A stretch of 64,000 bases of DNA from an uncultured Verrucomicrobiae bacterium (lineage in GTDB: Bacteria > Verrucomicrobiota > Verrucomicrobiia > Chthoniobacterales > UBA10450). Below the pieces are notes generated by a model that worked only from the letters and a program-made list of their open reading frames with translations, ran no database searches and was not told the DNA's origin. The translations under genes and the position numbers were made by a program. The DNA lies in the NCBI GenBank assembly GCA_963726745.1, contig CAVSDR010000004.1, forward strand, positions 160,001-224,000. Direction: 5' to 3'. How positions within the stretch are numbered: the stretch's first letter is position 1; every line of letters starts with the position of its first letter. Of the stretch, positions 4,863 through 57,662 are shown in pieces.

Positions 4863-6716
4863 GTGCGCACGATTCTTCGATTTCTCGCCGCGGTTCTGGC
4901 CTTCGCTCTCTCCGTCCAAGCCGAAACCACGCCGCCCGCGATCTCGCCTTCTCTCATCCTCCCACCCGCGCAACCGTGGAACGGCCAAAGCCGCGCGCTC
5001 GTGGTCCCGAAGGACGATCCGTGGATCACGCCGTCTGAGCGCGGCGACCTGAAGACTTCCCCCTCCTACGACGAAACCGTCGCCTGGCTGCAAAAGCTGG
5101 TCGCGGCCGCGCCGAACCTTTCCCTGCTTTCGCTCGGCAAATCGCCGGAAGGCCGCGACCTTTGGCTCGTCATCGCGGCGAAGGATAAAGTCTCCAAGCC
5201 CGAGGAGCTGCAGCGAAACGGCAAACCGACCGTCTTCGCCCAGGCCGGCATTCACGCCGGCGAGATCGATGGGAAGGATGCTGGCATGATGTTGCTGCGT
5301 GACCTGACCGTGCGCGGCACGAAGAAGGAACTGCTCGAGAATGCGAATTTCCTTTTCGTCCCGATCTTCAACGTCGATGGCCACGAGCGCGCCTCGCGCT
5401 TTAACCGCATCAATCAGCGCGGGCCCGAAGTCATGGGCTGGCGCACCAATTCCCAAAACCTGAATCTGAATCGCGACTACGCGAAGGTCGACACCGCCGA
5501 AATGACCGCGATGATCGGCGCGCTCCACCGCTGGTCGCCGGATCTGTATCTCGACCTCCACGTTACCGACGGCTCCGACCATCAATACGATGTCACCTTT
5601 GGCGGGAACGGCACGGACGCGAACGGCTCTTCGCCCGCAGGCGCGAAATGGCTGAACGAAGTGCTCCTGCCCGGCCTAACGAGTGCATTGCAAGCGCAAG
5701 GGCACATCCCTGGTCCGCTCGATGTCGCGAACCGCGCGGATCCTTACGATCTCACGAAAGGCCTGCGTGGGAGCCCGGGCGAGCCGCGTTACTCCACTGG
5801 TTATGGCGACACGCGGCACCTTCCGACAATCCTGGTCGAGAACCATTCGCTCAAGCCTTACGACCAGCGCGTCCTCGGGATGTATGTCCTGCTTGAGAAT
5901 ACCCTCCGCATCGCAGGCCAGCGTGGTGCCGAGCTGCGCACGGCGATCAAGGCCGATCAGACGCGCAATGCCAAGGCGGTCCCGCTCGTTTTCGGACCGA
6001 ATCCGGAACCGGGCCCGACCCCGATCGCCTATAAGGGAATCGAAGCGCGCGTCGCGCCTTCCGCGATTTCTGGCGCACTCCGGGTGGAATACACCGGCAA
6101 GCCGATCACGGTCACGATCCCGCATCAGTTCGACAACAAAGCGGTCGTCTCGGTCACGCGTCCAAAGGCTTACTGGATCCCGCCAGCCTGGAACGAGGTA
6201 ATCGCCCGCCTTCGCATCCACGGGATCGCGATGGAAACACTGAGCGCCCCGCGCGAGGTCAAAGTCGAGATGTATCGGACCGCGGACGAGAAGTTCGACG
6301 CGAAACCGTTCGAAGGCCACATGCGCGTCCAGGCCGCGACCAAGACCGAGACCCGAACCGAAAAATATCCGGCCGGTTCAGTGCGCGTGCCGGCCGATCA
6401 ACCGCTTGGCGATCTCGTGGTCCAGCTGCTCGAACCCGCCGGACCGGATTCGTTTTTCCAGTGGGGCTTCTTCGATCAAATCTTCCAGCAGACGGAATAC
6501 TTCGAGCCGTATGTGGTCGAGCCGATGGCGGCGCAGATGATGAAAGACGATCCAAAGCTGGCGGCGGAGTTCGAGGCCAAGCTGGCGAGCGACGAAGCCT
6601 TCCGCGCCTCCGCGCAAAGCCGGCTGCGCTGGTTTTACGAGCGCACGCCTTATTTCGATGAGCGCTGGCGCTTGTATCCGGTCGGGCGCGAGATGGCGGG
6701 CAGCGAAACGAAGTAG
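4863..6716 (+). CDS. Secreted M14-family zinc carboxypeptidase
   Basis: Signal peptide; GIHAGEIDG (HxxE), NVDGHER, NLNRD, DLH motifs. Confidence 0.88.
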   Translation: MRTILRFLAAVLAFALSVQAETTPPAISPSLILPPAQPWNGQSRALVVPKDDPWITPSERGDLKTSPSYDETVAWLQKLVAAAPNLSLLSLGKSPEGRDLWLVIAAKDKVSKPEELQRNGKPTVFAQAGIHAGEIDGKDAGMMLLRDLTVRGTKKELLENANFLFVPIFNVDGHERASRFNRINQRGPEVMGWRTNSQNLNLNRDYAKVDTAEMTAMIGALHRWSPDLYLDLHVTDGSDHQYDVTFGGNGTDANGSSPAGAKWLNEVLLPGLTSALQAQGHIPGPLDVANRADPYDLTKGLRGSPGEPRYSTGYGDTRHLPTILVENHSLKPYDQRVLGMYVLLENTLRIAGQRGAELRTAIKADQTRNAKAVPLVFGPNPEPGPTPIAYKGIEARVAPSAISGALRVEYTGKPITVTIPHQFDNKAVVSVTRPKAYWIPPAWNEVIARLRIHGIAMETLSAPREVKVEMYRTADEKFDAKPFEGHMRVQAATKTETRTEKYPAGSVRVPADQPLGDLVVQLLEPAGPDSFFQWGFFDQIFQQTEYFEPYVVEPMAAQMMKDDPKLAAEFEAKLASDEAFRASAQSRLRWFYERTPYFDERWRLYPVGREMAGSETK

Positions 6717-6765
6717 CGCGCTTCGACGTTGAACCGCGGAGGCGTCGCATGGAATCTTCCCGCAC

Positions 6766-7432
6766 ATGACCACGCCCGTCCTGATCGCGCCTTCCATTCT
6801 CGCGGCGGATTTTTCGCGGCTCGGCGAAGAGATCCGCGCGGTCGAAGCGGCCGGCGCGGACTGGATTCACTGCGACATCATGGACGGGCATTTTGTCGAC
6901 AACATCTCGTTCGGTCCGGCCCTCGTGAAGACGGTTCGCGGCCTAACGAAGCTGCCGCTCGATGTCCATCTCATGATCGAGCACGCCGACCATTATCTGC
7001 CGCGCTTCCTCGAGGCCGGCGCGAACTCGATCACGGTCCACGTCGAGCCGGAGGCGCACCATGATGTCGGCAAAACCTTGGCCGCGATTCGCGCCGGCGG
7101 CTGCCGCGCAGGGCTGACGCTCAATCCGGCGACGCCCTTTGAAGCCCTCGAGCCGCATCTCGCTTCGATTGATCTGCTGCTGGTCATGACGGTGCACCCC
7201 GGTTTCGGCGGGCAATCCTTCCGCGAAGATCAGATGGCAAAACTGCAGCGCGCCAGTTGCCTGGCGCGCAGAACACGGAGCGAATTTCGATCTCGAAGTC
7301 GACGGCGGGATTACCGCCGAAACCGCCCCGGTCGCTTTGCAGCACGGCGCCAATGTGCTGGTTGCCGGGACCTCGATCTTTAAAAGCCCGGATTACGCCG
7401 AGGCGATCGCAGCCCTGCGTTCCACTCGTTAG
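6766..7432 (+). CDS. rpe: Ribulose-phosphate 3-epimerase (apparent +1 frameshift near 7257, probably a sequencing error)
   Basis: APSILAADF, HCDIMDGHFVDN, DVHLM, MTVHPGFGGQ. The C-terminus DLEVDGGI...VAGTSIF continues in another frame to TAG at 7430-7432. Confidence 0.93.
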
Positions 7433-11522: not shown

Positions 11523-11655
11523 AAAGGGATCGACGTTGGGGCAGGACGAAGACGGTATCGGAAAAATGAATCCGGCGGAAGCGCAAGAAGTGTAGCAGCC
11601 TCGCCCGCAAATCGCTATCGCGCCTTTCGCCGGGAAAATTGCGCGTTGGCGGACG

Positions 11656-13054: not shown

Positions 13055-13108
13055 GCCGCGTTCTTTAAATGCACGCAGGCCATTTGGCGAATGCCGAGAA
13101 GTGGTCGG

Positions 13109-15467: not shown

Positions 15468-15857
15468 ATGCCAAGAGCAACCAACGCCCCGGCCAGCCGG
15501 GAGCGCCGCAAACGCGTGATCGACGCCGCCAAGGGCTACCGTGGCCGTCGTTCGAAACTTTTCCGCTACGCGAAGGACGCGACCATGAAGGGCAAATATT
15601 GGGCCTATCGTGATCGCAAGACGCGCAAGCGCACCTTCCGCTACCTCTGGATCCAGCGCCTGAACGCTGCCGTCCGCGCGCAGGGCCTGACCTACAGCCG
15701 TTTCGCCGAAGGCCTCAAGGCCGCGAACGTCGGCCTCGACCGCAAGGTCCTCTCCGATCTCGCGATCACCGACGAAGTCGCCTTTAAGGCGATCGTCGAG
15801 CAGGTGAAAACCGCGCTCTCGGAGAAGTCGAAGGCGAAGCAGCAGGCCGCGGCCTAA
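15468..15857 (+). CDS. rplT: 50S ribosomal protein L20
   Basis: AKGYRGRRSKLF, AYRDRKTRKRTFRYLWIQRLNAA, LDRKVLSDLA. Confidence 0.98.
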   Translation: MPRATNAPASRERRKRVIDAAKGYRGRRSKLFRYAKDATMKGKYWAYRDRKTRKRTFRYLWIQRLNAAVRAQGLTYSRFAEGLKAANVGLDRKVLSDLAITDEVAFKAIVEQVKTALSEKSKAKQQAAA

Positions 15858-15890
15858 CGAACAGAACGCGCCGGCGCGCGTTCGCTCGCG

Positions 15891-16907: not shown

Positions 16908-19252
16908 AATTTTCCGTCAATTGGCTGCGTGAATTCGTCGACCTCCCCGCGAGCACCGAGGAATTAGCCGACATCCTCACCTTCGCCGGCATCGAGATCG
17001 AAGGGATCGAGCCGCGCGGCTTGAACCTCGAGCATGTCGTCATCGGCCAGATCAATTCCTTCGCGCAACATCCGAACGCCGACCGCCTGAGCGTCTGCGA
17101 CGTGAACGACGGCACGAACGAGCATCGGCAGATCGTTTGCGGTGCGAAGAATTTCAAAGCTGGCGACAAAGTCCCGGTGGCCCTCCCCGGCGCCGCCCTG
17201 CCCAACGGTCTCAAGATCAAAGTCAGCAAGCTCCGCGGCGTGGAATCGCAGGGAATGCTTTGCAGCCCGAGCGAGCTCAAGGTTTCCGAGGATGGCGACG
17301 GTTTGCTCATCCTCTCACCCGATGCCCCGGTCGGCGCGCCCATTGGCGATCTCTTCCCGCCGGACACGATTCTAGACGTCGAGATCACGCCGAATCGGAG
17401 CGATCTCCTGAGCTACCTCGGCCTGGCCCGCGAGATCGCCGCGCTCACCGGCAAGACCGCGCGGCTCCCGCAAATCGCCGAGCCGGCCACGGTGCGAAAC
17501 GAGAGCGTGAAGCTAAGCGCGCCCGAGGCCTGCCCGTTTTATTCCGCGCGTCGGATTGCCCACGTCCGGGTCGGCCCCAGCCCCGCCTGGCTCCGAGCGA
17601 AACTCGAGTCTGCCGGGCTGCGCCCGATCAACAACATCGTCGACGTGACCAATTTCGTGATGCTCGAGCTAGGCCAACCGCTCCACGCCTTCGATGCCGA
17701 TAAATTAGACGGCGGGATCAACGTCCGCCTCGCGGCCGAGGGCGAGAAATTCCTCGCGCTCGACGGGAAAACTTACTCGTTAGGCCCGGACAATTTGCTG
17801 ATTGCCGACCACTCGCGCGCGGTCGCGATTGGCGGCGTCATGGGCGGCGAAGACAGCGGCGTCACCGAGTCGACGGCGAACGTTCTCCTGGAGAGCGCCT
17901 GGTTTCTCCCATCGAGTATCCGCCGCACCGCCCGCACTCTCGCCTTGCCGAGCGATGCCAGTTACCGCTTCGAGCGCGGCGTCGATCCCGCAATGACCTT
18001 GCGCGCCTCCGCGCGCGCCGCGCAATTAATCAGCGAGCTGGCCGGCGGTGAACCGGCGGCTGAGACGGCGATTGCCGGCGAAATTCCCGCTCCGCCCGCA
18101 GACGTGACCTTTCGCAACGCCCGCAGCAATCAGCTTCTCGGCATCTCCCTGTCCGAAAGCGCGTCGGCCAAAATTCTCGAAGGCTTTGGCCTCACCAAAG
18201 TGTCGGCTAACGAGGAATCGAGCACCTGGAAAATCCCGAGCCATCGCCCCGACTTGAAGCGCGAGGCCGACCTGATTGAGGAAGTCGTGCGCGCCCACGG
18301 GATCGACAAAATCCCGAGCCGCAACCGGAGCGTCTTCACCGCGATCAGCGCGGCCGATCGCAGCTTCGACTTCCAGGCGCGCGTCCGCCAGCGCCTAAGC
18401 GCGCGCGGTTTTTCCGAGGCACGCACCTCAGCCTTGATCGCGCGCGGCGCGGAGCATTTCGCCGAGGGGGCGGTGGCCCTGCGCAATCCGCTGAGCGAAG
18501 ACCATGTCGCCCTGCGGCCGAGCTTGCTGCCTGGCCTCTTGCAGGTGCTCGAGCGCAACCTGCGCGCGGGGGCGTCGAGCGTCCGCCTCTTCGAGCTTGG
18601 ACGCGTCTTTCAACCGCCGCAGGCGGAGGAAGCGCGGCATCTCGCGCTCCTTTGCGCGGGCGAACTGCAAGGCGCGCCTCATTGGCGGGGCGGCGAAAAG
18701 CGGCGGCTTGACCTCTTCGACTTGAAGGGCGCGCTCGACTCGTTAGGCAGCGAGCTCAGTTTCCGTCGTGCGGAAAAGCCTGGCCTCGCCCTGGCCGCAG
18801 AAATCCTCCAAGGCGAGCGCGTGCTCGGATTTGCCGGCCAGTTGAGCAACGCGGTCGCGACCAGGCTGGGCGCGAGCGCTCCGGTGTTTCTCCTGGAGGT
18901 CGAATTCTCTTCCCTGAACGCCGCCACGGCGGAGACGACCAAGTTCCAAGAGCTGGAGAAGTTCCCTGCGATCACGCGCGACATCGCCCTGATCGTGCCC
19001 GAAAACGTCGCCCATCGCGAGATCACGCAGACCATCCGGTCGACTAACGAGCCGTTGCTCGCGCAGGTGGAGCTGTTCGATTTGTTTGCCGGGAAAGCAG
19101 GCGCAAGTATCGGTGCCGGAAGAAAATCCGTGGCATATACGTTGACATACCGGGACAGAAACCGGACACTCACGAGCGACGAAGTTGCCGTGGTGCACGC
19201 GCGAATTCGCGAGCGGTTGCGGAGCGAGCTCGGGGCGGAATTGCGGGAATGA
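16904..19252 (+). CDS. pheT: Phenylalanine-tRNA ligase beta subunit
   Basis: Start MKFSVNWLREF at 16904 overlapping the pheS stop; HPNADRL, IVCGAKN, ITPNRSD, ASYRFERG, FPAITRDIA. Confidence 0.97.
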   Translation: MKFSVNWLREFVDLPASTEELADILTFAGIEIEGIEPRGLNLEHVVIGQINSFAQHPNADRLSVCDVNDGTNEHRQIVCGAKNFKAGDKVPVALPGAALPNGLKIKVSKLRGVESQGMLCSPSELKVSEDGDGLLILSPDAPVGAPIGDLFPPDTILDVEITPNRSDLLSYLGLAREIAALTGKTARLPQIAEPATVRNESVKLSAPEACPFYSARRIAHVRVGPSPAWLRAKLESAGLRPINNIVDVTNFVMLELGQPLHAFDADKLDGGINVRLAAEGEKFLALDGKTYSLGPDNLLIADHSRAVAIGGVMGGEDSGVTESTANVLLESAWFLPSSIRRTARTLALPSDASYRFERGVDPAMTLRASARAAQLISELAGGEPAAETAIAGEIPAPPADVTFRNARSNQLLGISLSESASAKILEGFGLTKVSANEESSTWKIPSHRPDLKREADLIEEVVRAHGIDKIPSRNRSVFTAISAADRSFDFQARVRQRLSARGFSEARTSALIARGAEHFAEGAVALRNPLSEDHVALRPSLLPGLLQVLERNLRAGASSVRLFELGRVFQPPQAEEARHLALLCAGELQGAPHWRGGEKRRLDLFDLKGALDSLGSELSFRRAEKPGLALAAEILQGERVLGFAGQLSNAVATRLGASAPVFLLEVEFSSLNAATAETTKFQELEKFPAITRDIALIVPENVAHREITQTIRSTNEPLLAQVELFDLFAGKAGASIGAGRKSVAYTLTYRDRNRTLTSDEVAVVHARIRERLRSELGAELRE

Positions 19253-19674: not shown

Positions 19675-20812
19675 ATGAAAGCGCTCCTCGCCCTCGAAGA
19701 TGGACGAATTTTCCACGGCGAGGCCTTCGGCGACGCCGGCGACCGTCGTGGGCGAAATTTGCTTCAATACCTCCATGACTGGCTACCAGGAGGTGCTGAC
19801 CGATCCCTCCTATCGCGGCCAGATCGTGGCCATGACCTATCCGCACATCGGAAACTACGGGACGAACGCGCTCGACCAGGAGAGCGCCCGGCCGCACGTG
19901 CGCGGTTTCGTGATCGAGGAATTAAGCGACATCCCGAGTTCGTGGCGCTCGGAGCGATCGCTCGAGGATTACCTGCGGCATTGGAAAATTCCCGGTGTGC
20001 AAGGGATCGACACCCGCGCCCTGACCCGACACCTGCGCGAGCGTGGCGCGATGAAAGCCTGCCTAACGAGTGAAGCAATCAGCGACGAGGAAGCAGTGGC
20101 GCGCGCGGCGGAGGGCGCGGGCGTGATCGGGATGGATTACGTGCAGGAAGTGACCGCGACCTCGCCTTATCGCTGGGATCCGGAGGACACGGCCAGCCGG
20201 GTGTGGGGCACGGAAGACGAGCGGATGCAGCTCCCGCCGGTGCGCCACCAAATTGTCGCCTACGATTACGGGATCAAAGAAAACATCCTTCGGCGCCTGC
20301 GGCAGGAAGGGTTTGGCGTGACCGTGGTGCCGGCGCAGACGACCGCGGAGGAAGTGCTCGCGCTGCAGCCCGACGGCGTGTTCCTCTCGAATGGCCCGGG
20401 CGATCCGAGCGCGCTCCCGTATGCGCATGAGGCGGTGCGCGGCTTGATGGGCAAGACCCCGATCTTCGGCATCTGCCTTGGGCATCAGGTGCTCGGCTAC
20501 GCGTTTGGCGGCCGCACTTTTAAACTCAAGTTCGGGCATCGCGGGGGGAACCAACCCGTGAAAGACCTGCGTAGCGGGAAGGTCGCGATCACCTCGCAGA
20601 ATCACGGCTTCGCGGTCGACCCGGAATCGCTTCCGCCGGAAGTCGAGGTCACGCATGTGAACTTGAACGACGGCACCGTCGAGGGCATGCGGCACAAGGA
20701 GCTGCCGGTGTTTAGCGTGCAATATCATCCCGAGGCCGCGCCCGGCCCACATGATGCCGGCTATTTTTTTGCGCAGTTCGCCGAGTTGATCGACCGCCAA
20801 AAAAAGCCCTAA
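19675..20812 (+). CDS. carA: Carbamoyl-phosphate synthase small subunit (apparent +1 frameshift near 19733)
   Basis: [19 protein letters not shown] from 19675, joined across one extra base to [34 protein letters not shown]. Confidence 0.95.
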
Positions 20813-21519
20813 CGAGTCCGCAACTCCACGACCTCGCGGAACATCCGCAAGCTGTCGCGGGCGAAGCTGACCTTGCTGCCGTCGTGGTGATTCCAGCGCA
20901 CCGGGATCTCGCGCAGCCGCAAGCCGGCGGCCTGCGCCAGGTAGAGCCATTCGACGTCGAAGCTGAAGCCGTCGTGGCGCGATTGCTCCAGCACCGGCCG
21001 GAATGCCTCCATCCCAAAGGCCTTGAAGCCGCATTGCGTGTCCCAAAACGGCAGGCCGGTCCCGAGGCGCACGAGTAAATTGAAGACGCGCCCTCCCTGC
21101 TCGCGATGCCACGCCTGCCGCTGGCCGATGAGCCGCCGGTCGAGCGCGCGCGAGCCGAAAGCGATGTCTATTTCCCCGGCGTTAATCGGGTCGAGAAGCT
21201 TGGGCGCTTCCTCGATCGGCGTGGAGAGATCGGCGTCGCTGAAGAGCGCCACCGGCCGCGTGGCCGCGAGCAAGCCATCGCGCACGGCGGCGCCTTTGCC
21301 GCGGTTTGGTTGGTGGAACAGGAGCCGCGTCTCGCAAGCGGCGCCGGTAAAGACTTCGCGCACGACCGCGCTGGTGGCATCGGGCGAGCCGTCGTCGACC
21401 ACGATGACCTCGCTGCCCGGGCTTTCGCGCTCGAGGTAGGCCAGCACTTCGCGCAGCGTCTGGCCGATGCGCGCCGCTTCGTTGTACGCGGGAATGACGA
21501 GGCTGAAGGGCGGGAGCAT
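20809..21519 (-). CDS. GT2 glycosyltransferase (dolichyl/polyprenyl-phosphate glucosyltransferase-like)
   Basis: VIPAYNE, VVDDGS, NRGKG, DADLS, DTQCGFK, FDVE. Confidence 0.9.
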
Positions 21520-21534: not shown

Positions 21535-22371
21535 CTAACGAGCGGTCGGTGGAGGCGTGGCCGGCGTGGTGCCGGTGGTGTCGCCGCCGAGAATGACGGG
21601 CAAGCCGTCCTTGCCGTTGCCGATGATGATGACCTTCGAGTTCCCGCTGAGCGCGAGTTCCTTGGTCGCCTCGATTCCTTTCCACTTCAGGAGATTTTCG
21701 TTGATCCCGTCGGTCACGATCTTTTGGAAACTGGAGATGCCCTCGGCCTCGATCGTCTTGCGCTCGGCTTCCTGTTTTTCCTTCAGGAGGACGAACTGCA
21801 TCCGCGAGGCTTCCTGCTCCGCGCTCAGCTTTTCCTGGATCGCCTGCTGGAGGCGCAGCGGCAGGGCGACATCGCGCAGGAGCACCCGCTCCACCGTGAC
21901 CCCGCGCGGCTCGATCGCGCCCACGATTTGGCGGGTGAGATCGCTGCTCATCCGCTCGCGCTCGGAGGAGTAGAGCGCTTTCGCCTCGTAAGAGCTGGTC
22001 GTCTCGCGGACTGCGCTGCGGACGTTGGGCCCCACGAGGACCTCGTCGTAGTTCAGCCCGACACTGCGATAAAGCTCCGGCGCCTTCTCGGGATCGAGAT
22101 GGAAAAGCACGCTGATGTCGAGATGCACCACCAGGCCCTCGCTTGAAGGCGTGTCCATCGCTTCCTTCACTTCGCGCGTTTGCACCGACATCCGATGCAC
22201 TCCGGCCAGCGGATTGATCAGGTGAAAACCGGCCGGCAACGCCTGCGGATAGACGCGCCCGAAAAGATCGACCACGCCCACGTGGCCTGCAGGAATCACG
22301 CGCGCCGAGCGAAACAACAACAGCCCGACGAGCGCCAAGAGGAAGAGGAAGGCCGTCGATTTCGGTTTCAC
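21535..22371 (-). CDS. SPFH/prohibitin-family membrane protein
   Basis: N-terminal TM, IPAGHVGV, VLLRDV.LP, AIQEK..AEQEA coiled coil. Confidence 0.88.
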   Translation of the reverse strand: MKPKSTAFLFLLALVGLLLFRSARVIPAGHVGVVDLFGRVYPQALPAGFHLINPLAGVHRMSVQTREVKEAMDTPSSEGLVVHLDISVLFHLDPEKAPELYRSVGLNYDEVLVGPNVRSAVRETTSSYEAKALYSSERERMSSDLTRQIVGAIEPRGVTVERVLLRDVALPLRLQQAIQEKLSAEQEASRMQFVLLKEKQEAERKTIEAEGISSFQKIVTDGINENLLKWKGIEATKELALSGNSKVIIIGNGKDGLPVILGGDTTGTTPATPPPTAR

Positions 22372-33138: not shown

Positions 33139-33190
33139 CCGCGGCCTTGCCCTTCCCGCGGCCTAACGACAGGATCAGGGCGCACCGCTC

Positions 33191-34209: not shown

Positions 34210-37200
34210 TTGAGCGCGGAGCTGCTGGCCCGGGTCGTTGCGACGCCGCCGATCGCGGAGCGGCTGGAGGCGATTCGCGCCGGCAAAAAACAGACAGCAT
34301 TCTCCCACGTCGCGGAGCAGGCGCAGGGCTTCCTGGTGGCGGCGATCGCGGGCGAGATCGGGAAAACGCTCTGGGTCCTCTGCCCCACGGTGCGCTCGCA
34401 GGAATTGCTCTACGAAAGCCTGCTCAACTGGAAACCGGGCGCGCTTTTCCTGCCGGAGGCGGAGTTCGCCGCGGTCGAAAACATCCTGCCCGATCCCGAG
34501 ATCGCGGCCGAGCGGCTGGCGCTTTTGAAGCAGGTCGCGGCCGGCGGCGGACCGCATGTGATCGTGACCACGCGCGCTGCGCTCGAGCAACCCGCCCCGA
34601 AAAAAGCCGCGCTCGGCTCGGCCGGCTTGAAGCTGAAACGCGGCCGCGGACTGGCGATGGAAAGCCTGATCGCGCAGTTGAGCGAGGCGGGTTATGAGCG
34701 CGTGCCGCAGGTGACCACGCGCGGTCAATTCGCCGTCCGCGGCGGCATTCTCGATCTCTACTCGTGGCAGGCGCAGCTCCCGGCGCGCGCGGAATTTTTT
34801 GGCGACGAGATCGAATCGCTGCGCGAGTTCGACGTCGATACGCAGACCTCCGTGCGCAACCTGCAAACGCTCGACCTCTTGTTAGGCGCAGCCGACGACC
34901 AGAGCGGCCAGGTGCGAGACTACGTAGGAAAGGATCACCTCTGCCTGGCGGTCGAGCCGGAGGAAGGCGACGCAGCGCACATCCTCGTGGGCGAAGGCTG
35001 GCTCGGGAAAGCGAAGAAGGAAGACTTCCGCGGAGCCTTCCTCGATGCCGAGGTGGGCGAGTTTGCTGTGGGCGATTTCATGGTCGCGGAGGCGAAGCGC
35101 GGGCAGTTTGCCGCCCGGCTCGCGCAGTGGAAAAACGAAGGCGCCCAGGTTGCTGTCTATTTCCAAACCGAAGGCGAAATCGAGCGCTTCCGCGAGATCA
35201 TGGACCGCGGCCTGGAGGGCGTGGACTTGCTCGAGGGCACGCTCCCGCGCGGCTTCACCTTTCCCGATGGGCAGCTCGTGGTCCTCTCGGGCGCGGAGCT
35301 TTTCGGGCGCGCGACCGCGCATGGCCGGCGGCGTTTGCAGCGCGCGGAACGCTTCGGCCGCAACCGCGCGCAAATCGACTTCAGCGAGCTGAACGAGGAC
35401 GATCTCGTGGTTCACCTGGAGCACGGCGTCGGCCGTTTCGTCGAGCTCACGAAGATGCCCGCGCCCGGAGGCGGGTCGCAGGAAGTGCTCACGCTCGAGT
35501 TTGCCGACGATGCGCGGCTCTACGTCCCGCTGGAGCAGGCTTACCTGGTTTCGCGCTACGTTGGCGTCGGCAAAAAATCGCCGCCGCTCTCCTCGCTGGC
35601 CGACGCCAAGTGGGCGCGCGCGAAGAAGAACGCGGTCGCGTCGATCTTCGACTACGCCGGCAAAATGCTCGCGGTGCAGGCAGAGCGCGAGACGCAGATC
35701 GGGCACACTTTTGGCCCGGACACGAAGTGGCAGAGCGAGTTCGAGCACTCGTTCCCGTATCGCGAAACAGCCGACCAATTGAAGGCCATCCAGGACACGA
35801 AGCGCGACATGGAGCAGCCGCGCTCGATGGATCGCTTGATCTGCGGCGACGTCGGCTTTGGCAAAACCGAGGTCGCGATCCGCGCTGCGTTCAAGGCGGT
35901 GATGGACGGCAAGCAAGTGGTCGTGCTCACGCCCACGACCGTGCTCGCGCAGCAGCATTTCGAGAACTTTCGCGCGCGCATGCTCGACTACCCGGTGCAG
36001 GTGGAAATGCTCAGCCGCTTCCGCACGCACGCGGAGCAAAAGAAAGCGCTCCAGGGCCTGGCCGACGGCAGCGTGGACATCGTCGTCGGGACGCACCGGC
36101 TCATTTCCGGCGATGTCGTGTTCAAGGACCTCGGCCTGGTGATCATCGACGAGGAGCAGCGCTTCGGCGTGCTCCACAAGGAGAAGTTCAAGGAGCTGTT
36201 TAAATTAGTCGACGTCCTTACGCTCTCGGCCACGCCGATTCCACGCACGCTCTACCTCTCGTTAGTCGGGGTGAAAGACATGTCCACGATCGAGACCCCG
36301 CCGCAGAATCGCCTGCCGGTGGAGACGGTCATCTGCGGCTACGACGAGCGCATCATCCGCGACGCGATCAACCGCGAGCTCGAGCGCCAGGGCCAGGTTT
36401 ATTTCCTGCACAATCGCGTGCAATCGATCCAGAAAGTGCGCGACCGCATCGCGGAGCTTTGTCCGGCGGCCCGGGTCGATATCGGCCATGGCCAGATGGA
36501 GGCCGACGAGCTCGAGGAAGTGATGGCGCGCTTCATCGCCGGGAAGACCGACGTGCTCGTTTGCACCACGATCATCGAAAGCGGGCTCGATATTCCAAAC
36601 GCGAACACGATCGTGATCGACCGCGCGGATCGTTTCGGCCTGGCCGATCTCTACCAGCTCCGCGGCCGCGTAGGCCGGGCGGAACACAAGGCCTACGCCT
36701 ACCTCATGCTTCCACGCGAGATGATGACCGTGGGCGCCGCGCGCAAGCGGATCAACGCGATCAAGCAATACAGCTCGTTAGGCGCCGGCTTCCGGATCGC
36801 GATGCGCGATCTCGAGATTCGCGGCGCGGGCAGCATTCTCGGCACGCAGCAAAGCGGCCACATCATGGCGGTAGGCTTCGACCTTTACTGCCAGCTCCTG
36901 AAGCAGGCCGTCGCGCAGATCAAGGGCGAGCGGCACAAGGCGCGCCTGGAGGTGGAGGTGCGGCTCGACTTCGTGGCCACGAACGAGGCCGAGTTTGTCG
37001 AGCAAGGACCGGCGGCGCGGCTGCCGGCGTTCCTCCCGACGAGCTTCGTGGGCGACACCACTTTGCGCATCCAGGCCTACCGGCACCTCGCGGAAATCAG
37101 CAGCCGCGAGCAGTGGGACAAGCTGCGCAAGGAGTGGCGCGACCGCTTCGGCAAGTTCCCCGCGGCCGTTGACAATTTGCTGGCTTTAACCGAGATAAAA

Positions 37201-38417: not shown

Positions 38418-39278
38418 GTGTCCCTCCGCATCGGCATTACCGTGGGCGACCCGGCCGGGGTCGGGCCGGAAATTGTTCGCGCCGCGCTCGCCGCAAGAGA
38501 ATTGCCGGCAGGATGTGAATTCCGCGTCCTTGGAAACTTAGCCGGCCACACGCCCGGCCAGCCTTCGCCGGATGGTGCGCGCGCCGCTTTCGCCGCGCTC
38601 GAGGAGTCCATCTCGCTGGCTAAAAATGGCGAGCTCGACGCCGTCGTCACCGGGCCGATCCACAAGGCGAACATGTATGAGGTCGGCTTCGCTTTCCCGG
38701 GGCAAACCGAGTTCTTCGCCCGGCGTTTGCATGTGGAAAATTTCGCCATGTGCCTGACGGGCGGCGCGCTCACCGTGGCCCTGGTCACGGCGCACATTCC
38801 ACTGCGCCGCGTGGCCGATCTCCTGAGCGTGGAGGAAATCGTGCGCGTGGGCCAGTTGCTGGAAGCATTCGTTAGGCAACGCGGGGTGCGCGTACCGCGA
38901 ATCGCGGTCGCGGGTTTGAATCCACACGCCGGCGAATCCGGCGCGCTCGGCCGCGAAGAGATGGAAACGATCCAGCCGGCCGTGCGGCAACTGCAGGCCG
39001 CGCACGCCGGTTTCGCAGGGCCCTTTCCGCCGGACACGATTTTCCACCACGCCGCCGCCGGGGAATGGGACGCGGTCCTCTGCATGTATCACGACCAGGG
39101 CTTGATTCCGCTGAAGCTGCACGCCTTCCACGAAGGGGTAAACGTCACCCTTGGTCTCCCCTTCCCGCGCACCAGTCCGGACCACGGGACCGCGTTTGCG
39201 ATCGCTGGGAAAGGCGTGGCTCGTCCCGACAGCATGCTTGCCGCGATCCGCCTGGCCGCCGAATTGGCCACGAAGTAA
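38418..39278 (+). CDS. pdxA: 4-hydroxythreonine-4-phosphate dehydrogenase
   Basis: GDPAGVGPE, GLNPHAGE, MYHDQGLIP, RTSPDHGTAF. Confidence 0.96.
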   Translation: MSLRIGITVGDPAGVGPEIVRAALAARELPAGCEFRVLGNLAGHTPGQPSPDGARAAFAALEESISLAKNGELDAVVTGPIHKANMYEVGFAFPGQTEFFARRLHVENFAMCLTGGALTVALVTAHIPLRRVADLLSVEEIVRVGQLLEAFVRQRGVRVPRIAVAGLNPHAGESGALGREEMETIQPAVRQLQAAHAGFAGPFPPDTIFHHAAAGEWDAVLCMYHDQGLIPLKLHAFHEGVNVTLGLPFPRTSPDHGTAFAIAGKGVARPDSMLAAIRLAAELATK

Positions 39279-40091
39279 ATGGTGATGTCGCTGGCTAAAT
39301 ATGTCGCCGTCTTCAAGCTCGGCCTGCAGAACACTTTTGTTTACCGCTGGAATTATCTCCTGCGCGCGGTCTTCGGCCTGATCCCGCTCGCGGGCACGAT
39401 TTTCCTCTGGCGCGCGGTCTTCCAGGAAAGCGGCGGCGGGATGCGAGGCTACGACTACGCCTCGATGATCTATTACTACTTGCTGACTATTTTGGTCTCG
39501 AACCTGGTCACGCCGACGGAGGATGAATGGCAGATTGCCTCGGACATTCGCGAGGGCCAGATCAATTCTTTCCTGACCAAGCCGCTGAGCTATCTGGCCT
39601 ACCGCTTCAGCATTTTCCTGAGCGGCCGGCTGGTCTACACGCTGGTTACGCTGGCGCCGATCGCCGCGATCTTCGTTTACTTCCGCAGCTTTGTAACCGT
39701 GCCGGCCGATCCGCTGGTCTGGCTGGCGGCGCTCGTCTCGCTGGCGATGGCGGCGATGATCCAGTTTTTCATCACCTACAGCATCGCGATGATGGCTTTC
39801 TGGATCCTCGAGATTTCGACCATAGTTTTCATCGTTTACTCCTTCGAGTACTTCCTCGGCGGCCAGATGTTCCCGGTCGACATCATGCCGGTGGGCGTGC
39901 AGGCGGTGATGAAGTGGCTGCCTTTTTACTACGAGCTCTTCTGCCCGATCGCGATCTTCTTGGAGCGCCTGCAAGGAGCGCGCCTGCTCGAGGCGCTCGC
40001 CATTCAGACCGGCTGGCTCCTCGCCAGCTGGGCCACGGCGCGCGCAATGTGGCGCCGCGGGCTCGGGCATTACCAAGCCGTCGGCGGCTAA
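39279..40091 (+). CDS. ABC-2 type permease (DUF990-like)
   Basis: Multi-TM; I.EG.IN.FL.KP, G..FP, GL..Y.AVGG C-terminus. Confidence 0.82.
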   Translation: MVMSLAKYVAVFKLGLQNTFVYRWNYLLRAVFGLIPLAGTIFLWRAVFQESGGGMRGYDYASMIYYYLLTILVSNLVTPTEDEWQIASDIREGQINSFLTKPLSYLAYRFSIFLSGRLVYTLVTLAPIAAIFVYFRSFVTVPADPLVWLAALVSLAMAAMIQFFITYSIAMMAFWILEISTIVFIVYSFEYFLGGQMFPVDIMPVGVQAVMKWLPFYYELFCPIAIFLERLQGARLLEALAIQTGWLLASWATARAMWRRGLGHYQAVGG

Positions 40092-47329: not shown

Positions 47330-47392
47330 GACGGCTGCTAATTGATCGGAGAACCCGAGGCAAACAAGTGGTTTTGGCGGCGGCCCCGCCCA

Positions 47393-47409: not shown

Positions 47410-47421
47410 TTAGACAGCAGC

Positions 47422-47637: not shown

Positions 47638-47650
47638 GAGCCGCAAAACA

Positions 47651-47680
47651 AAACGGCTCCGGATCGCTCCGGAGCCATTT
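47651..47680. terminator. Hairpin between convergent genes, probable terminator
   Basis: GGCTCCGGA-TCGC-TCCGGAGCC flanked by an A-tract on the left and TTT on the right. Confidence 0.7.
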
Positions 47681-47703
47681 GCGTGGTTAGGCGTTTCGCG
47701 CGC

Positions 47704-49482: not shown

Positions 49483-49608
49483 AGGTTGGCTCCAGAAAGA
49501 AGTTGGAATTATAGACCTCGCCACGAGGTCGCTTATTCACTCCAGCTTTGATTCGGCGCTGGTTGCGCGCCTGCGCGTGAAGCGAGCCAATCCCGCGGGA
49601 TCGCTCGC

Positions 49609-53252: not shown

Positions 53253-53255
53253 TCG

Positions 53256-54957
53256 TTAGACCGGCGCGGCCGCGCGCACCGCTTCCACGTGCATTTGCAG
53301 GCGCTTTTCGCCGAGATACTCGTCGATCTCCAAGCGGTAGGCCACGTCCCACGGCGGCGGCGGGAGCGGCGTGCTCGCAGCGCCGAAGAAAATGCCGCGC
53401 GCGCGATGATTCCGCTGGCGCAGGCGCAGCTGGAGATGCTTCTCCTTGACCACGCGCGGCGTCTCTGTCGGCTCGACCGCGCGCGAGAAAAACATCGGCT
53501 GCGGGTTGCCCGCGCCAAACGGCTCCAGCGCTTCGTGCCAGCGCAGGAGGTCGCTGTTTAATTCCGCGAAGGAGAGCTCGTGATCGAGCAGAAGCCGCGG
53601 CTGGAGCGCTTCCTCGCTGAGGAGCGCCCGGGCCGCGGCGCGGAAGTCGTCGGCAAATTTCTCGAACTCCGCCTCCCGAATGGTCAAGCCGGCCGCCATC
53701 TCGTGCCCGCCAAATTTCTCCAGTCGTGCGGCGCAACGCCCGAGCGCCTCGACCAACGAAAGCCCTTCGATGCTCCGCCCGCTCCCCTTTCCCACGCCGT
53801 TCGCGTCGAAGCCGACCAGGATGGTGGGCCGATGGAATTTCCGCGCGAGCCGCGAGGCGACGATCCCGAGCACGCCTGGGTGCCAATCACGCGCACCGAG
53901 CACGATCGCGGCGTCGCGCGCCGGATCGAACTCCTGGGCCACCCGCTCCTCGGCCGCCGCCGCGATCGCCTTCTCCACGCCCTGGCGCTCGCGGTTTTGC
54001 CCATCGAGGAACGCGGAAAGCTCCGTGGCCTCGGCATCGTCTTCCGTGAGCAAAAGCCGGAGCGCTTTCTCCGCGGTGGCGAGCCGGCCGGCGGCATTGA
54101 GCCGCGGCCCGAGACGAAAGCCAATGTCCGCCGCGCACGGCTGCGCGCGCACGCCCGCGACTTCGATCAAGCGGCGCACGCCGAGCCGCGAACTGCGCGC
54201 AATCTGCCGGAGACCATGTTGCACAAAGCACCCGATTCTCGCGCTCCAGCGGAACGATATCGGCCACGGTGCCAAGTGCCACCAGGTCGAGGTGCGCACG
54301 CAGATCGAAGCCGGAGACCGGACGCGTTTTCAGGAGCGCGTGGCAGAGCTTGAAGACCACGCCGACGCTGCAGAGGTAGCGCAGGGCGCAATCCTCCACC
54401 GCCTTCGGATTAACCAGCGCGACGCAAAGAGGCAGCGCGCTCTTTGGTTCGTGGTGATCGAGCACGATCACTTCCACCCCGCGGGTGCGCAGGAGCGCGA
54501 TCTCATCGAGCGAGGACGTCCCGCAATCGACCGCGACCAGGAGCTGCGGTTGATGCTCCGCGCAGCAGCGCTCCACGCTTTCGCGGCTAAGGCCGTAGCC
54601 TTCCTCCATCCGCAGCGGCAGGAAGAGCGCCGGCGTGGCGCCGTAAGCGCGGAGCATGGTCGAGAGCAGCGCGAGCGAAGTGACGCCATCGACATCGTAG
54701 TCGCCGAAAAGAACGATGCGCTCCCCGCGATCGATCGCCTCGAGGATCCGCGCGACCGCGAGCTGCATTTGCGGCAAGAGAAAGGGATCGCCTAACGAAC
54801 GCAGACGCGGCGCGAGAAAAGCGTTCACTTCGTCGGCGCAGGCAAAACCTTTGCGCCGCAGAAGCGCGGCGATGCAGGGCAAGCCGCAGAGTTCGGCCCA
54901 GGGAATGGCCCCAAGCTCCTCCGCTTTTGCCTCGTGAATGACCCAGCGCCGCTCCAT
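53256..54957 (-). CDS. recJ: ssDNA exonuclease RecJ (apparent +1 frameshift near 54226)
   Basis: GDYDVDG, VDCG, DHH, GTVAD in 53887..54957; PRLNAAGR, GSGRS, GGH.MAAG, PFG.GNP in 53256..54299. Confidence 0.94.
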
Positions 54958-54963
54958 CGCGCG

Positions 54964-55824
54964 CTACTGTAGCATCTGCGCGAGCGTCTGTGCGTTGAAG
55001 GGTGCGTGGACCTTGGCGTCGTTATCGAAATAGAGAAAAACCTCGCGCGCCCACCGCCGGATTCGCCGGGCCCAGGCGCGCAGTTCCGCATCCGAGTATC
55101 CGCTCACATAGAGCTGCTCCGCGCCATGCAGACGCACGTAGACGAAGTCCGCGGTTACCTCCTCGGCATAGGGAAATTTGCCGGCGGTATCGGCGACCAC
55201 GAAGGCGATCCCGAACTCGCGGAGAAGCGCGAAGAACTCCGGCACAAGAAAGGTCGGGTGCCGGATCTCAACTGCGTAGCGCAGCGGCCGGGAGCGATCG
55301 GTCTCCGCATGGACGCCGTGCTTCAGCTTGTCGTCGTGCAAGCGCGCGAGCTGCGCGGCTTCGGCGGTGGTTTTAGGCAGCAACTTGAAGAACTCGCGGA
55401 AGCGCGCGGGATTCCAGCCGAAGTTCGGCGGGAACTGCCAGAGGATGGGCCCGAGTTTCTCGCGCAGCGCGAGCACGCCCGAGCCGAAGAAATTAGCCAG
55501 CGGGATCTCGACCTCGCGCAGCTTCTTCATGTGGGTGATGAAGCGCGCGCCCTTGACCGCGAAGACGAATCCGGGCGGCGTCTGCGCATACCAGCTCGCG
55601 TAGCTCGACGGTCGTTGGAGCGAGTAAAAGGAGCCGTTAATCTCGATGCTGTTGAACTGGCGGCTGGCGTATTCCAGCTCGCGCTTTTGCGTGAGGTCTT
55701 GCGGGTAAAAGACGCCGCGCCACGGCGCGTAAGTCCAGCCGGAGATGCCGATGCGCGGTGGCTTCTTCAGACGAGCGGCAGCGGGCCGTCGTTTCCCGGA
55801 GGGAGCAGTGCGTGGCGTTGGCAT
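54964..55824 (-). CDS. DUF72 (YecE/YunF-like) protein
   Basis: IGISGW.Y..W...FYP, EINGSFY, LWQFPP, VEIRH, YVRLHG, YFDND. Start uncertain; may overlap the end of mqnA. Confidence 0.9.
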   Translation of the reverse strand: MPTPRTAPSGKRRPAAARLKKPPRIGISGWTYAPWRGVFYPQDLTQKRELEYASRQFNSIEINGSFYSLQRPSSYASWYAQTPPGFVFAVKGARFITHMKKLREVEIPLANFFGSGVLALREKLGPILWQFPPNFGWNPARFREFFKLLPKTTAEAAQLARLHDDKLKHGVHAETDRSRPLRYAVEIRHPTFLVPEFFALLREFGIAFVVADTAGKFPYAEEVTADFVYVRLHGAEQLYVSGYSDAELRAWARRIRRWAREVFLYFDNDAKVHAPFNAQTLAQMLQ

Positions 55825-56523
55825 AACTGGCGAAACTTGAGCAAGCCTTCCTGCTCGCGCGGGCCGAAGCCGAAGCGCAGGCAATCGTTGAAGTAGAATC
55901 GCAGAAAGTCGGGCGAGTAGTTTTCCTCCGCCGCGATCAATTGCTCGAGGCCTGCGAGATTCGCATCGCGCCGCGCGCGCAGCTGCTCGGCGATCGCCTT
56001 GCCTTCGCCCACCTCGGGGCGCACCAGCCAAAGCGCGAAGACGAACGGCAGGCCGGTCATTTCCTTCCACCATTGCCCGAGGTCGCGGTAGTGGAATCCG
56101 TCGCCATGCTCCTCGCGGAAGCGGATCGCCTGGTCGCCAATCAGGAGGCGCGCGGAGTCGTTAGCCGACGAGATCAGGCGCGGCGAAAGACCGGACTCGG
56201 CGAGGAGGCAGCGGAGGAGATTGACCGAGGTCAACGAAGCCGGGTCGAGCGCGATCTCGCCGGATTTCCTCGAGCGGCGCGCGGTGCGCCAGGACCACGC
56301 TGTAAACCGGGCCATCGGAACCCACGGCGACGCCTTCGACGATCCGATAGATCGGATGCTGCAGCAGCTCGAAGCTGGAAACGAAAGCGATGTCTAATTC
56401 TCCCGCAGCCAGCCGGCGGCAAAGGGCCGAGGGCGTGTCGAATTCAACCGGACCGGGCCAGCCGGCAATGAGCGGTCGGGAGTTGAGATATTGGACGCAG
56501 CCAATCCGCCGGTCGGCGCTCAC
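55767..56523 (-). CDS. mqnA: Chorismate dehydratase, futalosine pathway (apparent +1 frameshift near 56263)
   Basis: IG.VQYLN..PL and G.V.SV, then S.TS..L, LLIGD.A, DLG..W...TGLPFVFALW. Confidence 0.9.
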
Positions 56524-57662
56524 GCGCAGACCAGCTCGGCCTCGGCCGGGGGCTGCGCAGCGCGGGCCTTACCTAGGTGATGGTAATAGCTGTCGCGCTG
56601 CATCGGTTCGCGGCCAGCTTCGCGAATGGCGTTCTCGAGCATCTCGACGGTTAATTCCTGGGGCGTCTTCGCGCCCGCCATGTGAAAGATTTTCTCTTCC
56701 ATGATCGTGCCGTGGAGATCGTCGACCCCGTAGCCTAACGAGACCTGCGCCAGCGGCAGGCCCATGGAAACCCAGTAAGCGGTGAGGTGGTCGAAATTAT
56801 CCAGGTAGATGCGGCTGACCGCGAGATTGCGCAGTTGCTCGACGCCGGTGGCGCGCGGGATATGCGCGAGGATTTCGGTCTGCGGCTCGAAGGCGAATGG
56901 AACAAAACCAGTGAAGCCGCCGGTCTCGTCCTGCAGCTCGCGGAGTTGCCGCAAGTGATCGACCCGCTGCGCAAGCGTTTCGATATGGCCGTAAAGCATG
57001 GTCGCGGTGCTGCGCCCGCCCATTTGGTGCCAGGTGCGATGAACCTCCAGCCATTCCTCGGCGCTTTCCTTTCCGCGGCAGATTTCATCGCGCACCGCGG
57101 CGTCGAAAATCTCCGCGCCGCCGCCGGTGAGCGCGCCCAGGCCGGCATCGCGCAGCGTCGCCAAAGTGTCGGCAATCGAAAGCTTGAAGACGCGCTCGGC
57201 CAGATGGCGAATCTCGATCGCGGTGAACGCTTTCAGGATCAATCCGGGATCGAGCGCGCGCAGGCGCGTGAGCAATTCCAGATACCACTCCTTCTTCAAC
57301 GACGGATGCAGCCCGCCGACCATGTGCACTTCGGTAATGCCGAGTCGGAGAGCGTCCTGCACGGCGACCACAATCTCATCGATCGCGAGCTCGAAGGCGT
57401 GCGGGTCGCGCTTGCGCGCGGCGAAGGCGCAGAATTGGCAGGAGAGGATGCAGACGTTCGAATAATTGATGTAGCGATTGAGAATGTAGGTCGCGAAGTT
57501 GCCGTTCTTCCGTTCGCGGACGGCACTTGCCATGATCCCCAGGGCATTCAAGTCTTGCGCCTGGTAGAGCGCCAGCGCATCGGCCTCGGTGATGCGCTCG
57601 GCCGCCTCCACCTTCTCGGCGATGCGTCGGAGTGCGGGCGGAATGAGGGAAAAATTCATCAA
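56520..57662 (-). CDS. mqnE: Aminodeoxyfutalosine synthase (radical SAM)
   Basis: CILSCQFC, GGLHP, KAFTAIEI, GGGAEIF, TMLYGHIE, AYW, EKIFHMAGA. Confidence 0.9.
   Translation of the reverse strand: MMNFSLIPPALRRIAEKVEAAERITEADALALYQAQDLNALGIMASAVRERKNGNFATYILNRYINYSNVCILSCQFCAFAARKRDPHAFELAIDEIVVAVQDALRLGITEVHMVGGLHPSLKKEWYLELLTRLRALDPGLILKAFTAIEIRHLAERVFKLSIADTLATLRDAGLGALTGGGAEIFDAAVRDEICRGKESAEEWLEVHRTWHQMGGRSTATMLYGHIETLAQRVDHLRQLRELQDETGGFTGFVPFAFEPQTEILAHIPRATGVEQLRNLAVSRIYLDNFDHLTAYWVSMGLPLAQVSLGYGVDDLHGTIMEEKIFHMAGAKTPQELTVEMLENAIREAGREPMQRDSYYHHLGKARAAQPPAEAELVCA

Follow-up and report, generated by a model that had tools for sequence, protein, structure and literature searches.

Why does one short word recur, on both strands and in several reading frames, inside the core genes of this Chthoniobacterales genome? 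In the window, by which we mean the whole 64-kb stretch of DNA analysed, the core of this word, CTAACGA/TCGTTAG, occurs 38 times on both strands between 5676 and 56741, compared to 3.9 copies expected under an order-3 Markov model. Genome-wide the full word, hereafter M1 (GCCTAACGA[G]), has 1312 perfect copies against ~20 expected; these 9-mers are split 681:631 between the strands and lie 41-fold above codon shuffles. The core is invariant within degenerate, graded flanks (consensus GCCTAACGAG, followed by T at +8 and by A/T at +11), and the word is not palindromic. Its most enriched one-off form is GCCTAACAA (104 versus 4), whereas the one-off neighbours GCCCAACGA (7 versus 54) and GCCTAACGC (1 versus 10.8) are depleted. 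M1 is a marker of one Chthoniobacterales family; 298 genomes of similar GC content outside the family carry only 0-18 copies each.

M1 is mostly intragenic and scarce in low-GC3 genes (occupancy 0.10 versus ~0.5), and its density by GC3 class, 0.12 versus 0.55 per kb, bore out the scarcity expected in accessory genes; its deserts are polysaccharide and surface-protein clusters. We found no depletion in promoter-bearing gaps (0.82 per kb versus 0.53 in coding sequence) or in the ribosomal-protein cluster (9 copies versus 11.2). Inverted M1 pairs of the kind found at terminators are absent, with 14 neighbour pairs closer than 40 bp among ~2020, 6 of them inverted.

Reading frames, codons and conservation of M1

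A sequence-only reading of the window had placed the word in at least four reading frames of named core genes. CTAACGA or TCGTTAG is present at all 24 coordinates it cited, 23 of the 24 frames are borne out inside the gene calls made here, and the remaining site (56158..56164, + strand, A-N-D in an apparently frameshifted mqnA-like gene) reads S-A-N-D in the frame that the gene uses after the apparent frameshift. Fitting NCBIfam matches supported the gene names for 16 of 18 proteins submitted, a set that left out mqnA; the M14 peptidase and topo IB had none.

Across the genome five frames and both stop-codon frames are filled, unevenly. Compared to synonymous-codon shuffles, the S-L-[G/A/V/D] frame holds 668 sites versus 22, L-T 308 versus 8, x-N-[D/E] 288 versus 57 and V-R 179 versus 28; the word supplies a TAG stop 120 times versus 3, and in a further 177 genes it contains the TAA stop. 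All of these occur in the window. On the minus strand, mfd carries S-L-G (TCG-TTA-GGC) at 36775..36783 and S-L-V at 36259..36265, and pdxA carries V-R (GTT-AGG) at 38869..38875, a reading shared by 46218. Four copies in pheT (17777..19050) use two frames, S-L-G at 17777 and 18740 and A-N-E and T-N-E at 18207 and 19044, respectively, and L-T (CTA-ACG) is read at 5676..5682 on the plus strand and likewise at 6943, 20063, 22745, 25763, 44927 and 52010. At 20809..20815 a plus-strand M1 provides TAG, the stop codon of a gene on the minus strand; the copies at 21535, 41928 and 49609 serve likewise, and M1 lies over the TAA stop of gene 15516-15857 (15854..15860, +) and over the stop of gene 39279-40091 (40088).

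The word also dictates the choice among synonymous codons. Leucine in TCG-Leu-GGC is TTA in 448 of 494 cases versus 24 of 1449 where the next base is not G, proline before AAC-GA is CCT in 236 of 351, and 949 of the 2035 places that synonymous recoding could convert to the 9-mer are filled. The encoded peptides are themselves enriched (SLG 1.65 versus GLS 0.89; PNE 2.45 versus ENP 1.33). The suggestion that M1 draws on otherwise rare codons held in part: TTA, CTA and AGG are overused in it, but are not mostly confined to it, with 668 of 2839, 308 of 1296 and 101 of 713 falling in M1 genome-wide and 11 of 60, 6 of 26 and 2 of 11 in the window. M1 is kept at orthologous codons. The mfd site at 36775 persists in 20 of 26 genus orthologues, the other six reading TCG-CTC-GGC (five) or TCA-CTC-GGC (one), and that at 36259 persists in 14 of 29. 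The word occupies both strands and every frame without an internal stop and sets several synonymous codons at once, in agreement with the proposal that the constraint acts on the DNA rather than the protein.

A second word and the spacing of both

Where a single motif had been described, that motif is real, but it shares the genome with a second, independent overlaid word that had been missed, and no mechanism had been put forward. This word, M2 (SAWnnYGYYGgCTAWWT), has ~2500 genome copies and accounts for another 520 TTA codons; the window holds 56 copies at posterior >0.8 between 1652 and 63354 (for example 4812, 11507, 30202, 37626 and 46209, giving the C of CTA). Within ~250 bp of a copy, further copies of the same word are avoided, whereas copies of the other word are not. 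Against a null that retains peptide opportunities, M1-M1 pairs number 3 versus 20.3 expected below 100 bp and 11 versus 26.8 at 100-200 bp. M1 occupancy is 0.21 close to another M1 and rises to 0.54 farther away, and it is flat with respect to M2. Because avoidance is restricted to self, M1 and M2 constitute two independent systems, and the absence of cross-avoidance (ratios of 1.1-1.25 for M1-M2 versus 0.27-0.73 for M1-M1) indicates that one word cannot stand in for the other at a shared step. Such a self-only spacing test offers a general way of counting independent word systems. A search for the reader of M2 found none, and none of the pilins profiled tracks M2.

Both words resemble Chi and KOPS as short, over-represented, non-palindromic words within genes. 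Unlike KOPS, neither shows replichore strand polarity: on contig C6 a KOPS-type word splits 21:84 by strand, compared to 317:324 for M1 and 405:395 for M2.

A candidate AP2-domain reader

The candidate reader of M1 is an AP2-domain protein of 121 aa that has a Lys/Ala/Arg-rich basic tail and no evident signal peptide, encoded outside the window at C6:137354-137716 (minus strand) of the genome analysed here (G000), convergent with a gene that we take to be rsmA/ksgA. It was one of ~10 candidates profiled, which were chosen by inspection among 175 small basic proteins and the pilins. Scoring absence as not found with the query sequence used, we detected the gene in 54 of the 80 genomes surveyed: G000 itself, 53 of the 68 other members of the family and none of 11 outgroups from 10 other families. 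It was also present in G311 and G116, beyond this survey. All 15 family genomes without it are M1-poor, at 4-45 9-mers per Mb (median 27), compared to 26-1355 per Mb (median 221) in 56 carriers. Seven of the 56 carriers are as M1-poor as non-carriers, so the gene is not sufficient. The number of independent contrasts behind this co-occurrence is small (clade g29, the basal G346, the fragmented G397 and G050, a non-carrier that a ComEC tree places within the carriers), and the same pattern could be shown by any gene specific to the family. Across the family the protein core retains 63-88% identity, a conservation that pairs with the unchanged M1 motif.

The gene carries a conserved M1 site in its own promoter. 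In 18 of 32 loci, which form one clade, a TCGTTAG on the strand of the gene precedes the ATG by 12-21 nt; these are all 16 loci of the genus plus G311 and G116. In G406 it is found at -29. The M1-poor G002 and G016 are among the genomes with the site. As background, the 7-mer falls within 110 bp upstream of 285 of 2883 genes, and at one intergenic control, the M1 at 33163..33169 (+) upstream of the 33191 gene, a site is found in only 3 of 13 orthologous regions of the genus, at two different positions. The site directly follows TTGC..(16-17)..TAnnnT-like boxes read by eye, although a sigma-70 scan gave no promoter at this position, and 13 of the 32 loci lack an exact site, among them those of the M1-rich g28 and g84 genomes, which have near-matches only.

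The candidate itself does not match PF00847, and one of 73 close members matches it weakly, but 15 of 36 distant homologues match at E<=0.01, so that the protein appears related to the AP2 domain transitively. Its structure model (pLDDT 75) is confident for two strands and the helix and of low confidence in the first-strand region. Matches to this model are weak throughout (E>0.5, Z<6) and include the PfSIP2 AP2-DNA complex 6sy0 (Foldseek prob 0.63, VIA Z 4.0) and, with prob 0.87 and Z 4.7-5.2, AP2-type chains of the T. gondii mitoribosome. AP2 domains are described as recognising 6-7 bp motifs through a three-stranded sheet in the duplex major groove (excerpts of PMC5104403). The candidate would share with AP2/ERF and ApiAP2 proteins (PF00847; PfSIP2, PDB 6sy0) a beta-sheet and helix, basic strand residues, a 6-9 bp motif and PF00847-matching homologues; unlike them it is one free-standing bacterial domain joined to a histone-like tail and, provided that our reading is right, would have thousands of chromosomal sites and no regulon. 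Two distant homologues contain weak HC2-like regions, and distant tandem-AP2 homologues are integron-type cassettes with attC ends GCCTAACAA...CGTTAGGC; the promoter M1 could be a relic of such a cassette junction.

Forces that may have written the word

Summing over two explanations, a nucleoid protein and molecular drive, we consider it somewhat probable that the AP2 protein reads M1. The former, in which M1 copies are binding sites under weak selection for a nucleoid protein whose binding is predicted, is the reading that we favour, tentatively and at slightly under an even chance. The 38 core copies in the window would then be targets of this family-specific cytoplasmic protein. Its sheet would recognise GCCTAACGAG through the major groove, its basic tail would hold or bridge the DNA on either side in the fashion of a histone-like nucleoid protein, and it may repress its own gene through the M1 at the transcription start. 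We infer that every bound site brings a tiny benefit, saturating over ~250 bp, which in large soil populations may suffice for motif-making substitutions, synonymous ones and some that alter amino acids, to become fixed throughout the core genome; M2 would be a parallel system with a different reader. The 'second code' proposed for these core genes is accordingly real as overlaid words, but they are better read as protein-binding sites than as a message. The ~50-fold spread of M1 density among carriers is odd and fits a structural need poorly. IHF, Fis, H-NS and chlamydial Hc2 are small, basic, autoregulated DNA-binding proteins; the candidate is likewise small and basic, with autoregulation proposed, but has a different fold, and we know of no nucleoid-associated protein whose strict 9-mer recodes codon use genome-wide.

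To our knowledge, iteration this dense inside genes is a feature of uptake signals and HIP1 only. That M1, and perhaps M2, is an uptake signal preferred by a type IV pilus receptor and driven into the core genome by transformation seems unlikely, despite a close resemblance. The DUS of Neisseriaceae and USS of Pasteurellaceae are thousands of non-palindromic 9-10-mers on both strands of core genes, with lineage variants (excerpts of PMC2817400, PMC3630211 and PMC7811141), and M1 shares their lack of strand polarity, their frame bias and ~2-fold tripeptide enrichment (compare PMC2817400, in part), their invariant core with degenerate flanks (compare PMC3630211, in part) and a scarcity in low-GC3 genes and polysaccharide islands. 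Self-avoidance is also explicable, as close pairs add no uptake in H. influenzae, although 23% of its USS lie within 100 bp of another (excerpt of PMC7811141) and close M1 pairs are rare. Competence genes are present (major pilin 62/62, ComEC 66/67, DprA in G000), but equally so in motif-free outgroups, and the ComEA-like gene of G000 is split. The DUS receptor is the pilin ComP (PMC3630211, in part) and PpdA is predicted to read USS (PMC12616744, in part). In contrast, none of the pilins profiled tracks M1: a PilX-like pilin (25/52) is absent from the M1-richest genomes, a PulG-like pilin (53/66) extends to outgroups, and no pilin cluster from 7 genomes fits M1, in pilin sets that were incomplete and with one PilX paralogue not queried singly. 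Inverted terminator pairs, present in all DUS dialect genomes according to an excerpt of PMC3630211, are lacking for the mostly intragenic M1; two alternative tags would be expected to avoid each other, whereas M1 and M2 are mutually indifferent within one genome; and uptake accounts for neither the AP2 profile nor the promoter site. The best candidate reader has no evident signal peptide.

Molecular drive, in which M1-bearing incoming or broken DNA is protected or recombined more through the AP2 protein at no organismal benefit, retains all of the AP2 evidence and accounts for the wide density spread (by differing recombination rates), the tolerated promoter sites and the loss of GCCCAACGA and GCCTAACGC. 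DNA entering via ComEC is single-stranded. AP2 domains, however, read the duplex major groove (PMC5104403, in part); no nuclease or recombinase partner gene was found linked to the AP2 locus and M1 has no Chi-like polarity, and we regard this explanation as distinctly unlikely. Quite improbable, too, is another family-specific protein with the AP2 gene among its targets: only ~10 candidates were profiled, and the missed reader of M2 implies that such proteins can be missed, but among those candidates the AP2 protein alone combines a sequence-specific DNA-binding fold with a fitting distribution and a fixed site in its promoter. We give little credence to M1 as a methyltransferase target enriched through methylation-linked repair or methylation-dependent transformation. 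Cyanobacterial HIP1 (GCGATCGC), a palindromic octamer, is likewise highly iterated, born of substitution, conserved in coding DNA, quasi-periodic and more even than chance, and is tied to methylases (excerpts of PMC13756078), and no specific binding complex has been detected for it. An orphan N6/N4 methylase of G000 is conserved in 4/4 family genomes and was not found in one outgroup; however, among the 5 genomes profiled it is equally present in M1-poor G346 and G205, no co-varying methylase was found, and M1 and M2 are non-palindromic with graded flanks. Other G000 methylases are a C5 enzyme in a contig-end region and a type I subunit split over contig ends. An integron R-box word (GTTRRRY/RYYYAAC, as attC is defined in part of PMC3053210), kept for integrase recombination or spread from attC, is very improbable. 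GTTAGGC is contained in M1, and M1 and GCCTAACAA match the two attC ends flanking tandem-AP2 cassettes in metagenome loci, but M1 sites are single and in frame and come about through substitutions in core genes that are intact; of 126 G[CT]CTAACAA, just one is paired in attC fashion (boxes 57-141 bp apart), pairs at 40-150 bp lack orientation bias, and among the called genes a motif scan turned up two XerC/D-like recombinases but no integron integrase. This largely refutes an integron reading of present function. A compositional or codon-context artefact, to which uneven frame use might point, is barely credible, being refuted by the shuffles, the outside genomes, conservation and spacing.

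The readers of HIP1 and USS have long been elusive or merely predicted. Here the candidate reader is small and expressible, its predicted site is sharp, its own promoter contains a likely operator, and there are lineages that have naturally lost it; together reader and site make the force that writes a word thousands of times into genes testable. Should a cytoplasmic AP2 protein prove to be the reader, a DUS-like genome pattern does not imply DNA uptake, and M1 would represent a new way to mark or organise a chromosome; if M1 serves uptake, it belongs to an already known type of system. In its broadest form, which we hold as a conjecture rather less likely to be right than wrong, this family of soil Verrucomicrobia may organise its chromosome through a sequence-specific AP2/histone-tail protein, which may derive by domestication from an integron cassette with the same word at its attC ends. 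Selection for its sites would have rewritten codon use and peptides, and some lineages would have added a second word-reader system, yielding a layered, chromatin-like code.

Abundance, codon choice and range of the M1 word

All 24 positions at which the sequence-only reading had placed its motif carry CTAACGA or the reverse complement, the 7-mer core of the word that we call M1, which is present in 38 copies in the window versus 3.9 expected. Across the source genome (3.41 Mb, about 64% GC), we found 2025 copies of the 7-mer versus 194 expected and 1312 copies of the longer 9-mer, GCCTAACGA, versus 19.7 expected. Among 2883 genes called with a simple dicodon model, which missed some genes and starts, the 7-mer exceeded synonymous-codon shuffles in all usable frames (668 versus 22, 308 versus 8, 288 versus 57 and 179 versus 28), bearing out the proposal that it lies inside genes in multiple frames. 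It also forms TAG stops (120 versus 3 in the shuffles), and another 177 genes have their terminal TAA inside M1. Several genes of this genome appear broken by single indels, probably through sequencing error; in the window, an mqnA-like gene (55767-56523) is apparently frameshifted and the recJ frame (53256-54957) has an internal break.

The suggestion that rare codons are tied to the motif holds in part: roughly one in four TTA and CTA codons lies in M1, as do 14% of AGG codons, and the majority fall outside it. A further 520 TTA codons sit in a second word, M2. Synonymous choice does follow the motif as predicted, TTA being used in 448 of 494 TCG-Leu-GGC contexts versus 24 of 1449 where a base other than G follows. 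The pull extends to the serine codon (494 TCG-Leu-GGC versus 71 with AGC and 19 with TCC), and the peptides SLG, PNE and PND show about twice the enrichment of their reversals. The 9-mer is present at 949 of the 2035 coding positions where a synonymous change could create it. One-base variants of the core CTAAC, such as GCCCAACGA, occur at 0.13-1.7 times the null, close to it or beneath it, and several are drained; by contrast, the word tolerates flank changes and a single G-to-A substitution. In mfd, two M1 sites occupy the same codons in 20 of 26 and 14 of 29 sequences without indels, in line with the expected synonymous-site conservation; this comparison covers 30 orthologues at 80% protein identity, with three rows from unpublished genomes (G001, G008, G042) and a quick version of the tree.

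The nearest named relatives of the source genome are Chthoniobacterales, and the family carrying M1, which we take to be UBA10450 in GTDB, is probably the one containing Ca. Udaeobacter. Across 251 family genomes the 9-mer ranges from 13 to 4633 copies, compared with 0-18 in 298 Verrucomicrobiota genomes outside the family; 249 of the other 250 members of the family lie above that range. Sister lineages are enriched for other words: YRAGTAC in G405 (loci L256-257, L293-294), AAGATCGACA in G050 (L222-225), G361 and G355 (L238-243), and ATAACTC in G311 (L253-254, L287-288). GTAC is the most avoided 4-mer of the source genome (0.16). In genome G005 (L039-L043), the words CCGACTCC, CCGACACC and CCAAGTCC cluster in a few 2-kb bins, probably as a tandemly repeated part of a large gene. 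The M1 pattern is a real and strong feature, and it is not in print as far as we searched. Searches for the 9-mers gave no match in the literature covered, which left out most subscription papers and in which supplementary genome-wide motif tables could list the word. Further searches returned no report on uptake sequences in Verrucomicrobia, and no paper on a bacterial AP2 nucleoid or histone-like protein or on Udaeobacter competence that dealt with M1 or M2. For comparison we used PMC2817400, PMC7811141, PMC3630211, PMC3053210, PMC5104403, PMC13756078, PMC1939737 and PMC12616744.

A second word and spacing within each word

Mixture models (posterior >0.8) separated 2094 M1 sites from 2525 sites of M2, SAWnnYGYYGgCTAWWT, of which 56 lie in the window; together with the offsets between sites, they rule out the two words as halves of one long site. 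M2 is patchily distributed: among 301 genomes of the order, its pattern matches 1120 times in the source genome and 570 times in the unpublished genome G205, where it takes the variant form GAKCGCGYYGnCTA, and among 34 genomes of the genus G011 has 153 matches and G015 has 120. Both words are unpolarised, whereas a KOPS-type word is polarised.

Pairs closer than 300 bp are depleted within each word (0.27-0.73 of expectation for M1-M1, 0.35-0.81 for M2-M2), whereas M1-M2 pairs are not (1.10-1.25). Under a null that keeps peptide opportunities, we counted 3 M1 pairs within 100 bp versus 20.3 expected and 11 at 100-200 bp versus 26.8 expected. M1 occupancy climbs from 0.21 to 0.54 with distance from another M1 and is independent of distance to M2. 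Because each word avoids only itself, these data point to two systems, with saturation in each extending over some 250 bp.

Candidate readers and receptors

Of about ten candidates chosen by eye from 175 small basic proteins and the pilins, one fitted as an M1 reader, a 121-residue AP2-domain protein (contig C6:137354-137716, minus strand) with a basic tail and no evident signal peptide. Searches detected its gene in 53 of the 68 further genomes of the family, in none of 11 outgroups, and also in G311 and G116, a profile that depends on few independent contrasts. The 9-mer reaches 26-1355 copies per Mb in 56 carriers, seven of them motif-poor, compared with 4-45 in 15 family genomes without the gene. 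Five tailless forms all occur at 44 or fewer 9-mers per Mb, which would fit tail loss as the reason for low density, but a long tail is present at 43 (G002) and short frames occur at high density (G062, G165). The predicted model of the protein has weak likeness to AP2 folds. No PDB sequence search in this analysis gave a significant match. We found 1197 homologues, and 15 of 36 distant relatives tested from the 150 listed match AP2. Two of the distant homologues (P0144, P0163) are AP2-TIR fusions, possibly defence-related, and two loci (L461, L466) have long reading frames with a similar AP2 start. A tandem AP2-like frame lies in G205 (L422:1471-1992), an M2-variant genome without the family gene.

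Neighbours of the AP2 gene are conserved in 31 of 32 loci, and in 18 of the 32, all from one clade, M1 occupies a constant position between the ATG and a promoter-like box pair, the exact site being absent from 13. This site occurs in motif-poor genomes too, and an intergenic M1 site taken as a control recurs in 3 of 13 orthologous regions. Promoters do not avoid M1. No RNA holder was found for the locus. Tandem-AP2 relatives in metagenome loci L443, L444, L447 and L449 are integron-type cassettes; by the attC definition in PMC3053210, the words before these genes are attC ends (GCCTAACAA ... CGTTAGGC), and those of L443, L444 and L447 correspond to M1 and to the G-to-A form, the most frequent M1 variant. 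We therefore dropped these relatives and their M1-like words as independent support. An attC or cassette relic is a possible origin of the promoter site, and the match suggests where the reader's specificity may have come from. A supposed dialect in the metagenome loci, AAGTTAT/AATTACA, proved to be repeated orthologous positions.

For M2, two HMMs and PF00847 found no AP2 paralogue in the source genome, and no clear candidate appeared among the listed rows (95 rows of at most 420 residues; 129 promoter-proximal M2 sites screened). None of the other candidates tracked the words: the major pilin (62 of 62 genomes), ComEC (66 of 67), a PulG-like pilin (53 of 66), a PilX-like tip pilin (25 of 52; not found in G311, G453, G013, G024 or G205), a ComEA-like SNase-HhH fusion (5 of 5, motif-rich and motif-poor alike), an E2F/DP-like winged helix (66 of 66) and an orphan N6/N4 methylase (4 of 5). 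Pilin clustering in seven genomes likewise gave no receptor tracking the words. The source genome has two paralogous pilV-pilW-pilX-like operons (DUF7305; C3:584383-586936 and C6:623578-626133), patchy in the family, the latter about 2.6 kb from dprA. The ComEA-like protein of the family is a secreted fusion (L210-L214); in the source genome the SNase part (C4:17176-17862) lacks the HhH, a remnant of which lies on another contig (C2:230150-230300). The E2F/DP-like protein (C3:581000-581353, C2:186156-186500; L154:3000-3350, L283), found in all 66 order genomes, is single-copy in most outgroups and duplicated in the family; CGGGAACG, a word of other Verrucomicrobia, presumably resembles an E2F site. 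The methylase (C3:981293-982042, L281) has 69-73% identity in four of four family genomes and was not found in one outgroup genome.

Proposed role of M1

We tentatively favour, at slightly less than even confidence, a reading in which the AP2 protein would act as a nucleoid-type factor, binding M1 sites all along the chromosome and repressing its own gene; each 250-bp neighbourhood with an occupied site would bring a slight gain, enough for motif-making substitutions to become fixed. That M1 is instead an uptake signal agrees with the genomic pattern; we consider it unlikely, since inverted pairs are missing, no co-varying pilin was found among those profiled, and alternative tags should avoid each other, whereas M1-M2 pairs are undepleted. 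An AP2-dependent drive acting at a cytoplasmic recombination step appears improbable. Recognition of M1 by some other reader is more doubtful still, a role in methylation is similarly remote, and use by integrons we regard as very improbable. Phage mimicry gained no support from three paired-site scans of viral contigs (4, 0 and 1 matches, none with M1-like flanks or density) or from a search of viral contigs for an AP2 relative, both weak negatives. What is new here is a second independent word, spacing that acts only within each word, and a testable cytoplasmic candidate reader.
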